The notes under the pieces are model-generated. The model did no database searches. It was not told the origin of the DNA and saw only the letters and a program-made list of their open reading frames with translations. 64,000 nt of DNA from a virus, in UHGV virus genome UHGV-0211740; one strand, given 5' to 3'. How positions within the stretch are numbered: the first letter of the stretch is position 1; every line of letters starts with the position of its first letter. This document shows, one piece after another, positions 1 to 44,468 of the stretch. Both the position numbers and the translations under genes were made by a program.

Positions 1-1810
1 ATGTAATTGTTTTATCTGCAACAATAAGGCAACTATGCAAACGAATGGCATGGCGCGACGGAGTCGCGACATAATATAAAAGCAGTAACCATCACCCCCG
101 TGATAGTTTGTCTGCAAACTATTAATCAGATCATAGTTGCCTTGTATTTAGTTAATCATGACATAACAAGCAAGGCAACTATAGATCTGCTAATAGTTGC
201 CCTGCTTTTATATTATGTCATATATTATTAACTTGTTAATTGTTTTCATGCAAACGAATGTCATGGCTGATTATTGGTGTGTAAATGGTCTATACGTGAA
301 CAGTGAGGCATGCAATAGTAACAGTCGTTATTGTGTCTAAAGTGTATAAGGTGTCAGACAAGTTTTTCTCCTCTTTGTCAAGTGCTGCATGAAAAATTTA
401 CAATCTGGTATGGTAGCATTTTTGCGGCCCTGTTTACATTCAGTAATGTATGTATAATCCTTGTTGTGTGGGCGTTTAGACGTCTAAATGGCTAGATGGC
501 TGCAGGTTAATATCTAATCTATTGGCTGCTAACTATATCCCCCACAAATAGTAAGAAATGCAATTGTTATATGCGTAAACAGTGTCACATGTTATCAATC
601 CTTGTATGTATCGCCAGTGGTGCGCATAATGGGTATTATGTTAAATTGCCAGTAGTGATAACAGTTCTCACAATGATAGGTATTCTCATTCACCCCCCAC
701 AAGATAGGTTGCAAATGTTGTGCCACTGTGTGAACGGCCTCACCTATTAATTTGCCTCACTGCCATGATATTTGAGAATCGTTATAAGAATGAGAAGTAT
801 TCCCATTCCGTCCGCCTGGCAGCACTCCTGTAGGACAAGCACAAAATCGTGGCATAACTGGACCCCCTTGGGATATTTCTGGCTGACTCTTCAGACTTGT
901 GTGGTAAAAGCCAACCCCCTCCGGCGGGGCAGGTGGTGTCTGCTGGAAAATTGCAGGTCAATTAAAAAATTTACGTGGTGTATGAAGCGCTCTTCAGGCA
1001 AGGAGTGTGTTATGGGATGAAACCCTCTTCAGGTGATGATATTTGTGGGTGTGATATTTGCTGGAAAGCCAGATATGACGGGACTCCCGGCGGGGGCAGG
1101 GGTAGTACAGGCAGGGAAAATGTGAGGATGTGGTGGGGTAATTTGATCAGACATGTAGAATATAGGATATGTTACAGGTATGTTAAATATGGAGGTTGAA
1201 TATCTGCAGGATTTGTGTGTAAAATCAAAGACTTAAGTGGTGTTGTGGTATTTTCTATAAATAATTCAGGTTTAATAGGTAATATTTGTCTCTATCCACT
1301 TTGTGTGGTAAACAGATTTAGATGAAATTGGTTTACAAGTGTATACATAATATACAAATTAAAGATACAAGAAACCCCCCTCCCCCTTCGGCTACCATTC
1401 ACCTTTTCCTCTGACTGGTACTTAAACACTTATTCAGACTCTTCAGGTTATCACCCATATACTATATGGCAGTGACTGGTGTCCTCCGGCCCCTCTTTCG
1501 TCACCCGTCCGCTTCGCCAAGCTAATGCCATAGCCAAAGGTTCGGTTGTTCACCCTGTTCACTCAGGTGTATCTCCATACCCCTTCAAACCGAAGAGAAC
1601 AGAAAACCCGAATTACTCGGTAAAAGAAAAGAGAAGAACTTAATTTTATCAGGATGGGCAAGAATGTCAAGGGATGACTGCTCACTAAACAAGCAAACAG
1701 TCATGTGTGGGAGGTAAGTGATTGTGGTGGTGGGAAATTTAGTTGGTGGGTATTATAGGTGCTTCCGGTACCTTATCTGAACAGTTAAACCTGCAAAGCA
1801 GGATTGTGTG

Positions 1811-2161
1811 TCAGTCCAGAGGTTCATCACCTATTTCACTGAAATCAATGTTCATAGTCTCTTCCCAACCATCAATTTCAGCACCTGAGTAGAGATCTTT
1901 AGGGTCTACATTAAGAGCTTCTGCAACAGCGTCCATGTTTAGCACATCTGGGAGGTAAGATTCATCAAATTCAAGGTAAATGAGGCCACGAGTGTTGTCA
2001 GCCCCACCAAATAGCTCTATCTTCATGAAATCTCCTCTGAAAATGAGAGTGTGAACAGGGTTTATACGTTCTGATATGCGTGGAATTATGCACGTTTGCC
2101 TCTTCAGGCCATGCTTTAGCATGAGAAACCTGTGTGGGCTCGGTGCTTCATAGTCTCCCAC
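1811..2161 (-). CDS. hypothetical protein
   Basis: 116-aa ORF at the distal end of the minus-strand block; no recognisable motif. Confidence 0.35.
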   Translation of the reverse strand: MGDYEAPSPHRFLMLKHGLKRQTCIIPRISERINPVHTLIFRGDFMKIELFGGADNTRGLIYLEFDESYLPDVLNMDAVAEALNVDPKDLYSGAEIDGWEETMNIDFSEIGDEPLD

Positions 2162-41274: not shown

Positions 41275-41779
41275 ACATAAAGAATATAACTAAAATAACT
41301 AAAGAATAAAAATAAAAAGATCTAGTACTTATTGTACTAAAGTGCATATACTTAACTTATGTAGAATATACTAGATCTAAAGTACTATGTTTTAAATTTA
41401 TTACTTACTGGTATAGTGTCGGCCCTTCATTGGCACTCGCCTATGAGGGGCGAGATGCCGGGCCTCCATAGTGCACACAATAACAGGCGTGCATACGTGC
41501 ATGGCTGTTCACATGTGTGGGAGCGAAGCTATAGCGCAGGCCAAAGGCCGAGCACTAATGTGGACCGCCGACGAAAGCTTGCCAGCGCAGTAAGGAGTCG
41601 GTTGGGAGTCTCCCGCGCGAGTTTGTTTAAAGTTTATGTGTGGAAACTGGCAAGAAGGCCTCTAAATCGCTCTACAGCTGTGTGAACTACACTGGGTAAG
41701 GCAATCACACCAGTTTGATAGAAAAGCTCGTTACAAAGCGATACAGTGAGTTTTTCTATAACCTGAAGAGGAGTCAGCT

Positions 41780-43659: not shown

Positions 43660-43734
43660 GCCCTGTTAGCTTAGTGGATAAAGCAGCGGCCTTCTAAGCC
43701 GTTGACACTGGTTCGAGTCCAGTACGGGGTGCCA
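43660..43734 (+). tRNA. tRNA-Arg (anticodon TCT)
   Basis: 7-bp acceptor stem, T-arm CTGGTTCGAGTCCAG, anticodon loop CTTCTAA, 3-prime CCA encoded. Confidence 0.75.
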
Positions 43735-43738
43735 AATC

Positions 43739-43825
43739 GGGGAGTTATACCGTAGAGGTAGCGGTGTAGACTGTAAATCTATTGTCATTGCGACTCGGGT
43801 GGTTCGACTCCATCACTCCCCACCA
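43739..43825 (+). tRNA. tRNA-Tyr (anticodon GTA)
   Basis: Acceptor GGGGAGT/ACTCCCC, anticodon loop CTGTAAA, long variable arm, T-loop GGTTCGACTCC, CCA encoded. Confidence 0.75.
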
Positions 43826-43936
43826 AAATCCCATATTTGTGATAAATAATATAGATAATGACATTGATGTTTATCGTCGTTTATACTAGTCCCTAACTGT
43901 TCGAAAATCAGTGTCATTATCAGTGTTGTTTATAAA

Positions 43937-44026
43937 AGAGAGTAGGGAGCATGGTGCTCAAGCGGTCTTGAAAACCGTCCCGTTGAGATATCCTCGATGA
44001 TGGTTCGATTCCATTACTCTCTGCCA
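43937..44026 (+). tRNA. tRNA-Ser (anticodon TGA)
   Basis: Perfect 7-bp acceptor AGAGAGT/ACTCTCT, anticodon loop CTTGAAA, long variable arm, T-loop TTCGATT, CCA encoded. Confidence 0.75.
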
Positions 44027-44124
44027 GATCGTGGATCATGAAATTAAGCGAGCGCCGGAAGCAGAACCGGATTAACAAATGTTACAGTCGTCATCGCCGA
44101 CTAGCAGCATGATCCACATAATAT

Positions 44125-44221
44125 GCTAGGTAAGCCCTTTGGCAAGGGCGAGGATTTTTAATCCTGAAAATAGACGAAGCAGTCGTTGAATACATAGGTG
44201 GTTCGATTCCATCGCCTAGCA
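44125..44221 (+). tRNA. atypical 97-nt tRNA-like gene (possible pseudo-tRNA or non-canonical tRNA)
   Basis: Perfect acceptor stem GCTAGGT/GCCTAGC and canonical T-arm GGTGGTTCGATTCCATC, but no clean 5-bp anticodon stem with 7-nt loop (closest is AGGA/TCCT with loop TTTTTAA) plus about 30 nt of extra internal sequence; no encoded CCA. Confidence 0.35.
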
Positions 44222-44228
44222 CCTTTTT

Positions 44229-44304
44229 GCTGATGTAGCACAATTGGTAGTGCAATTGATTTGTAATCAATAGGTTGCAGGTTCAAGTCCTGCCATCAGC
44301 ACCA
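44229..44304 (+). tRNA. tRNA-Thr (anticodon TGT)
   Basis: Acceptor GCTGATG/CATCAGC, anticodon stem-loop ATTGA-TTTGTAA-TCAAT, T-loop GGTTCAAGTCC, CCA encoded. Confidence 0.8.
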
Positions 44305-44305
44305 T

Positions 44306-44380
44306 GTCCCTGTAGCTGGAAGGTTCAAGCAAGCGACTCATAATCGCCAGACGGTGGTTCAATTCCACCCAGGGCCACCA
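44306..44380 (+). tRNA. tRNA-Met or Ile2 (anticodon CAT)
   Basis: Acceptor GTCCCTG/CAGGGCC with one mismatch, anticodon loop CTCATAA, T-arm GGTGGTTCAATTCCACC, CCA encoded. Confidence 0.7.
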
Positions 44381-44391
44381 AATTATAAATA

Positions 44392-44468
44392 CTCCGCGTA
44401 GCTCAGCTTGGTAGAGCGCCTGATTTGGGATCAGGAGGTCGAGTGTTCGAATCACTCCGTGGAGACCA
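44392..44468 (+). tRNA. tRNA-Pro (anticodon TGG)
   Basis: C1-G72 acceptor CTCCGCG/CGTGGAG, D-arm AGCTCAGCTTGGTAGAGC, anticodon loop TTTGGGA, T-loop GTTCGAATC, CCA encoded. Confidence 0.8.

Follow-up and report, generated by a model that had tools for sequence, protein, structure and literature searches.

A probable genome-end region with a short direct terminal repeat in the gene-free convergent gap of an rV5-like coliphage

The DNA analysed here is a stretch of 64,000 nucleotides from the virus genome UHGV-0211740 (below, the window), and its first 1.8 kb form a gene-free region that includes a 460-bp homologue of the direct terminal repeat (DTR) described in related phages. The source is an rV5-like coliphage (Vequintavirus). 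A megablast search with positions 1–1900 matches 122 phage records, essentially all of them rV5-like (Vequintavirus), at 82–92% identity. A search for distant DNA similarity, done with the conserved block considered below and with the whole region, yields matches in Vequintavirus only (119–122 records), and just two IMG/VR contigs match the region.

A gap of about 2.5 kb separates two converging transcription units, and positions 1–1810 cover all but its left quarter. In the relatives, the gap measures 2531 bp in all and extends about 625 bp further left than window position 1, to the stop of the last plus-strand gene. Curated relatives such as RudolfGeigy, JohannBauhin and rV5 have the same gene-free gap of about 2.5 kb. 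The rV5 paper (Kropinski et al. 2013, PMC3606486) shows it as a grey 'non-coding' box between genes 163 and 164 and reports a GC-skew switch at this box; bidirectional terminators were expected between the two genes, and none were found. The GC skew in the window tracks gene orientation, being negative at 1–40 kb and positive beyond. The features of the gap are listed in Table 1, where the slash in a terminus motif marks the cut.

Table 1. Predicted features of the gap and of its right flank (window coordinates)
Feature	Position	Strand	Description and evidence
Gene-free region	1..1810		annotation of relatives; conservation of open reading frames and codon-position test; no PHROG or Pfam match; rV5 'non-coding' box
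Six half-sites xCAACTAT/ATAGTTGx	26-36, 103-110, 115-122, 133-143, 172-182, 193-203	+, -, +, -, +, -	
Left copy of the 20-bp direct repeat	35..54	+	ATGCAAACGAATGKCATGGC; the two copies bracket the palindromic module; FV3 keeps one copy
Weaker terminator-like hairpin	60..112	-	hairpin 109-87, then U-rich tract; faces leftward transcripts; -12.8 kcal/mol, z = -2.2
Near-perfect snap-back palindrome, 152 nt	68..219		outer arms of 18 nt, 100% complementary (68-85 and 202-219)
Intrinsic-terminator-like hairpin	163..222	+	hairpin 168-207, then UUUUAUAUUAU; faces the rightward unit; RNA fold -19.5 kcal/mol, z = -4.2
Right copy of the 20-bp direct repeat	248..267	+	repeat search and alignment
Hypervariable short-repeat array	268..356	+	GTRAAYRGT with a period of about 16 bp, then TGTCA/GTGTA with a period of about 9-10 bp; Tandem Repeats Finder and alignment
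Left terminus motif TGTCA/GAC	352..359	+	cut at 356/357, within palindrome TGTCAGACA; invariant in 16 sequences; KPP-1 homologue TGCTA/AAC
DTR, 460 bp	357..816		single copy in the collapsed sequence; Korf 2019, EdH4 record, record breakpoints
Right terminus motif TGCCA/GGC (minus-strand reading)	814..821	-	cut at 816/817; KPP-1 homologue TGCTA/GAC
Variable segment just outside the right DTR boundary	833..886		relatives have alternative GC-rich hairpin inserts
G-rich unit A	887..933	+	CTCTTCAG-ACTTGTGTGG-AAAAGCCA-CCCCCTCCGGCGGGGCAGG
G-rich unit B	1025..1102	+	CTCTTCAGG..TTTGTGGG..GGAAAGCCA..CTCCCGGCGGGGGCAGGGG
Promoter-like site TTGAAT-18-TAAAAT	1196..1225	+	in a conserved stretch; weak evidence
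Ultra-conserved non-coding block, 374 bp	1372..1745		97-99% identical in 119 phage records
C6TC5 tract, edge of conserved block	1375..1386	+	leftward transcript reads G5AG6, then a U-rich run
Near-consensus sigma-70 promoter TTGACA-16-TGaTAAAAT	1643..1670	-	11/12 matches, extended -10; points left, toward the DTR
First real gene right of the gap	1811..2029	-	71 aa; phrog_12108 at 1e-43; reads toward the gap

A terminal redundancy of 458 bp was reported for the Vequintavirus phages EdH4 and HdK5 (Korf et al. 2019, PMC6563267). Positions 1–816 of the window align to EdH4 at 86% identity, and the repeat (458–460 bp) has the same boundary nucleotides and the same place in the gap. In the EdH4 record, the first 458–459 nt are repeated exactly at the end, so that the same sequence stands at both ends of this homologous genome; the record starts at the equivalent of window position 816 and ends at that of position 357. 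Other records break at the same points. Aya (OX460980) begins with GACAAGTTTTT (GACAAG..) at 357 and ends with ..ATGTCA at 356, and the HdK5 and ECP2303 records end at 357, while bov11CS3 and bov25_3 begin ..CGTCCGCC at 816 and end TGGCAGC.. at 817. Positions 1441–1500 of Shigella phage CM1 (MK962749) contain a junction that has not been collapsed, that is, the sequence up to 816, 59 nt of the array preceding the repeat, and the repeat again; this tandem arrangement is probably an un-collapsed linear assembly. Thus, breakpoints from several laboratories coincide at 356/357 (Aya, EdH4, HdK5, ECP2303) and at 816/817 (EdH4, bov11CS3, bov25_3, CM1). Further, many BLAST alignments begin at 351–352 and stop at 828–834. 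The alignment of 16 sequences, the window and 15 relatives, consists of conserved blocks alternating with indel-rich spacers that start right at the DTR boundaries; on the right, conservation runs 16 nt beyond the boundary and is then replaced by alternative hairpin inserts.

Hence we consider it highly likely, as judged from the sequence and its homologues, that here lie the genome ends (the concatemer junction) of a Vequintavirus whose terminal repeats are short and exact. As shown through the homologues, the packaged chromosome would run from 357 rightwards round the genome to 816 and so carry the 460 bp at both ends; its left end is predicted to begin with GACAAGTTTTT and its right end at 816 to read ..CCGTCCGCC. 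The earlier note on this DNA flagged 1–1800 as a cis-acting locus, namely a replication origin, packaging site, terminal repeat boundary or transcriptional hub. Of these options, the terminal repeat or packaging site is supported, the homologue of the EdH4/HdK5 DTR having both boundaries inside the flagged interval; a replication origin gains no support, nor is it contradicted. The comparison with the genome ends of related phages which the note suggested as a check does give an answer: the ends of EdH4/HdK5 and of Klebsiella phage KPP-1 align to 357 and 816. On the other hand, the motifs that the note emphasised do not mark the boundaries, as the 11-mers lie 150–330 bp outside the left one and the G-rich repeats 70–290 bp outside the right one. 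Both the terminal repeat at 357–816 and the conserved block at 1372–1745 were missed by the note; nearly all the repeats that it did describe are real, with small errors of coordinate or spacing.

The second line of evidence comes from another genus. KPP-1 (Mydovirus, Vequintavirinae) has a 514-bp DTR, mapped by PhageTerm and by twofold coverage (PMC9862379), in the same kind of convergent gene-poor gap. While there is no overall DNA similarity to the window, both ends of the KPP-1 DTR align to the window ends within 0–1 nt, in the inverted orientation. The window left end, GTGTCA/GACAAGTTTTTCTCCTCTTTGTCAAG, corresponds to the reverse complement of the KPP-1 right end, TTGCTA/AACACAATTCTCTCTCCTTGTCAAG, and the reverse complement of the window right end, GTGCTGCCA/GGCGGACGG, corresponds to the KPP-1 left end, GGTGCTA/GACGGACAG. 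Flanking words are conserved as well (TTCTC..CTTGTCAAG and GTCCG.C/T.GCA). All four ends, two in the window and two in KPP-1, fit TGYYA/RRC when read 5' to 3' into the repeat. The left and right ends match each other at 6/8 positions in the window and at 7/8 in KPP-1, at positions set by independently determined cuts. The surroundings are also alike: a large palindrome is situated on the same side of the repeat (in KPP-1 with perfect arms of 21 nt that stand 164 nt apart and enclose TGATAAnnnTTATCA palindromes), and CTTCAG..TTGTGKG occurs twice on the equivalent side in the same orientation, followed by G-runs. The differences are that KPP-1 has a gap of only 334 bp on its G-rich side, that no homologue of the 374-bp conserved block is detectable there, and that its palindrome is made from a motif other than that of the window. 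Short DTRs are known from related subfamilies too (328, 342 and 1165 bp). We had also considered BME3 (Stephanstirmvirinae, PP239276) as a third case. Its boundaries do not show TGYYA/RRC, in a record that is hard to interpret there, and it was dropped, since internal duplications around the annotated DTR make it unsafe to interpret. Around this annotated 342-bp DTR there are internal duplicates of 789 nt and 415 nt, as well as two identical palindromic modules with 15-nt arms 117 nt apart; the structure of the record around the ends looks unreliable.

To the left of the repeat, the short-repeat array stops exactly at the left terminus. It is the least conserved stretch of the region, with the most indels, and the number of copies varies from about 3 in the window to about 12 in rV5. 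Inside the terminal repeat, at 475–488, there is a perfect 14-bp palindrome, TTTAGACGTCTAAA.

Further left is the palindromic module, from which the earlier note picked out AAGGCAACTAT as an 11-mer occurring four times in alternating orientation. Three copies are exact (26(+), 133(-) and 172(+)), whereas the fourth, at 193(-), has one mismatch. With at most one mismatch allowed, there are six matches in 64 kb against 1.34 expected, a count reached in 0/100 shuffles. The note's two copies of the 18-mer TGCAAACGAATGKCATGG are indeed exactly two, at 36–53 and 249–266, against 0.02 expected, and they lie within the 20-nt direct repeat. Three exact 11-mers are present in the loci of 17/18 relatives and one in FV3. 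The half-sites, from 26 to 203, include two ACTAT-N10-ATAGT units 60 bp apart. Positions 1–222 are almost invariant in the alignment. Folded as single-stranded DNA, the 152-nt palindrome gives -46.5 kcal/mol (z = -11.9); it is near-invariant in 15 relatives, with a 33-nt insertion in its apical loop in rV5, A147 and C9, and absent in FV3 (NC_019517, 1555–1620), which lacks the whole 11-mer module precisely between the 20-bp direct repeats. Either a natural deletion by recombination between the repeats or a collapse in assembly may account for this.

A stable hairpin followed by a U-run is predicted on both strands of the module, and the Murica and Alma records label the plus-strand hairpin a terminator. 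As far as can be judged from its predicted folds, the module resembles the bidirectional terminator whose presence the rV5 authors had anticipated. An alternative, possible but doubtful in our view, is that the module (55–247) is not a terminator but an array of sites to which a dimeric protein binds (the small terminase, for example, or a factor of replication or partition), or else a miniature mobile palindromic element bracketed by the 20-bp repeats. The six half-sites with the two palindromes at 60 bp, an invariance beyond the needs of a hairpin, the precise presence/absence polymorphism between the direct repeats in FV3 and the analogous KPP-1 module made of TGATAAnnnTTATCA palindromes are consistent with such an array or element. 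However, both strands have terminator features, the module is dispensable in FV3, and its single copy in the window, with none in 5,426 E. coli genomes, argues against a mobile element. A host origin or mobile element was likewise rejected for the region as a whole, as these genomes contain only chance matches of 40 nt.

To the right of the repeat, the two G-rich units are copies of one composite, CTCTTCAG - TTGTG(T/G)G - AAAGCCA - CTCC(C)GGCGGGG(G)CAGG. CTTCAG-N0-14-TTGTGKG occurs only twice in 64 kb, once in each unit. The earlier note placed the repeat CCGGCGGGGCAGG at about 917 and 1087; there is one exact copy, at 921–933, while 1087–1102 reads CCGGCGGGGGCAGGGG, with an extra G and no gapless match. 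The recurrence of GCTGGAAA also stands, at 942 and 1060, but the spacing is 118 bp rather than 145 bp, and this 8-mer alone hardly exceeds chance, with 8 occurrences in the window where 3 are expected. The units are C-rich in leftward RNA, the plus-strand GC skew rising to +0.56 at 1000–1300. The only G-quadruplex-type motif of the window (both strands; four G3+ runs, loops of at most 12 nt) is at 1080–1116(+), and unit B overlaps most of it. A further observation concerns CTCTTCAGG, found seven times against 0.61 expected (0/100 shuffles), at 990, 1025, 1439, 2100, 18442 and 25075 (+) and at 41762 (-). It is always on the strand antisense to local transcription, and four copies are within 990–2108.

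The ultra-conserved block is more conserved than any coding bin of the neighbouring 7 kb. It has no homologues outside the genus in the DNA search and none in E. coli (5,426 genomes). The candidate sigma-70 promoter read leftwards from 1670 to 1643, assigned by its hexamers and their spacing, is conserved in the relatives. The 265 nt downstream of it are non-coding, G-rich as RNA, and end at G5AG6 followed by U's and then by a stretch of 33% GC. The C-rich tract seen near 1375 in the earlier note is the C6TC5 tract, the length of which differs by one C in either direction among the relatives. Together with the following TTCGG, it (1375–1386) resembles the mitochondrial CSBII sequence, which ends transcripts and forms primers. 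The transcriptional hub of the note is partly right: two transcription units converge here, hairpins of the terminator type are present, and the candidate sigma-70 promoter is strongly conserved. At the gathering threshold, Rfam finds only tRNAs elsewhere in the window; for 1–2500 at E up to 5 it gives two chance-level matches and no family for the conserved block.

Two descriptions of the block beyond the genome-end reading come into question, and we hold both to be unlikely, about equally so. Firstly, the block and the AT-rich segment 1200–1371 may form a transcription-primed (R-loop type) replication origin, in which RNA started at 1670–1643 would stall or stay hybridised at G5AG6 and prime leftward synthesis into the segment of 33% GC. 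The promoter comes close to the consensus and is shared by 119 records in conserved form, and the 265 nt behind it are non-coding yet exceed the neighbouring genes in conservation. The transcript would be G-rich (plus-strand GC skew -0.24 to -0.31 at 1301–1600) and would end at G5AG6-UUU next to a region of 33–35% GC. Such a layout resembles ColE1 RNA II, T4 oriF/oriG and the mitochondrial LSP–CSBII region. On the other side, no iterons are seen, KPP-1 with its 334 bp on the equivalent side has no detectable homologue of the block, and the GC skew here tracks transcription rather than replication, in agreement with the rV5 paper (PMC3606486).

Secondly, the conserved blocks may be genes of non-coding RNAs (ncRNAs), for instance regulatory or anti-defence ones, with an RNA of about 265 nt running leftwards from the promoter at 1670–1643 and a possible antisense partner from 1196–1225. 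A strong promoter followed by non-coding ultra-conserved sequence would fit this, as would the convergent promoter-like sites bracketing the block; pseudo-ToxI of phiTE provides a precedent for a phage ncRNA in the subfamily. But no Rfam family matches even at the relaxed threshold, the RNA folds no better than shuffled sequences on either strand (z = -1.0 and -0.35), no clear terminator follows, and the pseudo-ToxI locus is not in the equivalent gap. Indeed, an equivalent of this 'escape locus' was considered for the gap and rejected, as in phiTE it is situated in a same-strand unit near tRNAs and the terminase gene.

A number of points weigh against the assignment of genome ends and of functional elements around them. 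The ends of the window phage are placed by homology (86–92% identity) rather than from reads or virion DNA. Breakpoints in some records may simply have been taken over from older ones, in which case they are not independent. The TGYYA/RRC motif holds about 12 bits and was derived post hoc from four ends that form two homologous pairs. The 11-mer module cannot be essential for packaging or replication, since FV3 lacks it. Minus-strand intrinsic terminators were considered for the G-rich units and rejected (unstable hairpins, z about 0). The conserved block has the unremarkable RNA folds just mentioned and too few substitutions for covariation. We found no transcriptome literature for rV5-like phages. 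Finally, PhageTerm verdicts in two papers on Vequintavirus isolates are 'circular permutated' for the bov phages and 'headful' for BpE1AUH, and older restriction work describes PVP-SE1 and phiTE as permuted.

These last verdicts are the main support for a different view, very unlikely in our opinion, according to which there are no fixed ends: packaging is headful with circular permutation, the apparent repeat is an assembly convention, and the gap is a mere zone of convergent termination, served by the bidirectional intrinsic terminator at 60–222 and by C-rich Rho-loading tracts. The hairpins with U-runs and the strong C over G bias of leftward RNA at 1000–1300 (plus-strand GC skew +0.5) do fit termination. 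Four facts speak for fixed ends instead. Breakpoints coincide exactly across laboratories at two specific nucleotides; 459 nt are exactly duplicated at the two ends of the EdH4 record; the agreement with the independently mapped KPP-1 termini is at the nucleotide level; and the bov11CS3 record, which comes from the very paper calling those phages permuted, starts exactly at 816.

The description of 1–1800 as gene-poor, also made in the earlier note, is borne out. We traced the open reading frames (ORFs) of at least 30 aa in this interval through 15 relatives and counted variable columns by codon position, the flanking gene being the positive control. None of them is conserved with a coding signature: they are broken in most of the relatives, or intact only where the DNA is near-invariant, and their variable columns are evenly spread, compared with 12/6/37 by codon position in the flanking 71-aa gene. 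PHROGs and Pfam match none of nine gap ORFs, the flanking gene being matched to phrog_12108. Genuine conserved small genes, which the note regarded as incompatible with its reading, were thus sought by conservation and in both databases, and none emerged. That annotators missed real small genes is hardly credible: the PMBT16 and MiataMamis annotations (PHANOTATE-style) do list 10–13 short coding sequences in the gap, and ORFs within 1443–1704 are intact in 12–15 of the 15 relatives, but the latter persist only through near-invariant DNA, with substitutions showing no third-position excess (4/3/3, 4/4/4), all other gap ORFs are broken in most relatives, the listed translations have GTG starts, a non-protein-like look and, on inspection of the sequence, no ribosome-binding sites, no gap ORF has a PHROG or Pfam match, and curated annotations leave the gap empty. 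The many short coding sequences of PMBT16 and MiataMamis in the gap are over-calls.

In the genome-end reading, the arrangement of the cut sites points to a possible mechanism. Each 5' end of virion DNA would begin with RRC, with the same motif TGYYA/RRC inverted at the two boundaries; this inversion is the geometry required by duplication of the repeat through staggered nicks and strand displacement. One nuclease specificity may then act on opposite strands at both boundaries of the single repeat in the concatemer, whereupon the 3' ends would be extended with strand displacement and each daughter genome would receive a full repeat, as in the T7-type scheme. The roles of the other elements are less certain. 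The left short-repeat array and the right CTTCAG..TTGTGKG/G-run units may be recognition or positioning signals for the packaging machinery, and the G-rich units, being C-rich in leftward RNA, possible Rho-loading sites. The 152-nt palindrome may serve as a dispensable bidirectional terminator or insulator shielding the junction from the rightward unit. The conserved block with its leftward promoter may produce a G-rich non-coding transcript, and our best guess is that transcription from the block toward the junction primes replication or assists end processing. The joint proposal, namely that one nuclease nicks inverted TGYYA/RRC sites at both boundaries across Vequintavirinae genera and that the block transcript primes replication or licenses end processing or packaging, is a tentative one, and we would not count on both parts holding together.

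Among known systems, one of the close counterparts is the T7/T3 concatemer junction, which also has a short, exact, non-coding and non-permuted repeat that is duplicated during packaging. In T7, short-repeat arrays stand beside the terminal repeat. For T7/T3, a hairpin-ended intermediate, a role of transcription toward the junction and RNA-polymerase pausing at it are described (PMC4281155, PMC3276506). The differences are the unrelated phage family and terminase, the length of the repeat (460 bp here, 160–230 bp in T7/T3), host sigma-70 promoters in place of phage RNA-polymerase promoters, and the fact that here both flanking transcription units point at the junction. The cosB site of lambda and the pac sites of SPP1 and P22 are similar in having repeated short motifs within about 100–300 bp of a sequence-specific cut; in those phages the ends are cohesive or packaging is headful, and here the copy number of the array varies about fourfold among close relatives. 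The layout expected of a terminase site is seen in the sequence, as repeat arrays abut the putative left cut and a conserved motif syntax is situated outside the right one. By analogy, end-primed synthesis in N4 is associated with inverted repeats close to the ends.

The core of this description is already known, as the non-coding box (2013) and the 458-bp redundancy (2019) were published for sister phages. The EdH4/HdK5 paper gives the length of the redundancy alone and describes neither its boundaries nor the flanking arrays, the palindrome or the conserved block; in the window phage, the ends are placed by homology. The rV5 box is the same locus (about 88% identity; convergent, free of ORFs and marked by a GC-skew switch), but the genome was taken to be without defined ends there, and neither terminators nor a function were found. 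We did not find described the coincidence of the box and the redundancy, the boundary nucleotides and their cross-genus conservation, the shared end motif, the flanking arrays, the palindromic module with its absence from FV3, or the ultra-conserved promoter-bearing block. In sum, the locus is most likely of an ordinary kind, namely a concatemer junction of the T7 type, but its cis-elements have not been described.

Some other observations were made along the way. The signs of both GC and AT skew flip at about 40000, which is the divergent junction between the minus-strand unit (1–40 kb) and the plus-strand unit. A 73-aa minus-strand ORF at 2535–2756 and its surroundings (2401–2800) show an identity of 0.04–0.6 to close relatives, compared with about 0.9 on either side; judging from the sequence, this looks like a small gene cassette replaced in the window phage. 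The tRNA cluster at 43660–44468 contains six genes according to ARAGORN (Arg, Tyr, Ser, Thr, Met, Pro), five of which are found by the Rfam tRNA model at threshold, Ser at 43937–44026 being missed. Nineteen 'Campylobacter phage' records (MG0656xx; UNVERIFIED where fetched) are 82–92% identical to the region and classed as Vequintavirus; the host names they carry are doubtful. Several deposited fragments of about 2 kb (OR844887, OR845197, OR844894) are pieces of the gap region only, which suggests that assemblies of such phages tend to break up at the terminal-repeat locus.

Of the more than 100 rV5-like genomes deposited, most start at an arbitrary position, and for several circular permutation is claimed. 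Ends fixed at two exact nucleotides, within the long-unexplained rV5 box, would provide a common start coordinate for the genus and explain why assemblies break or duplicate at this locus. They would also show which ends and flanking signals are to be kept when these candidate therapeutic phages are rebooted or engineered. For the study of concatemer processing in large myoviruses with short terminal repeats, the conserved block and the cut-site motif common to the ends offer concrete and inexpensive experimental targets. If the joint proposal is true, the nick rule and the block transcript would be a myovirus counterpart of the transcription-dependent junction processing of T7.

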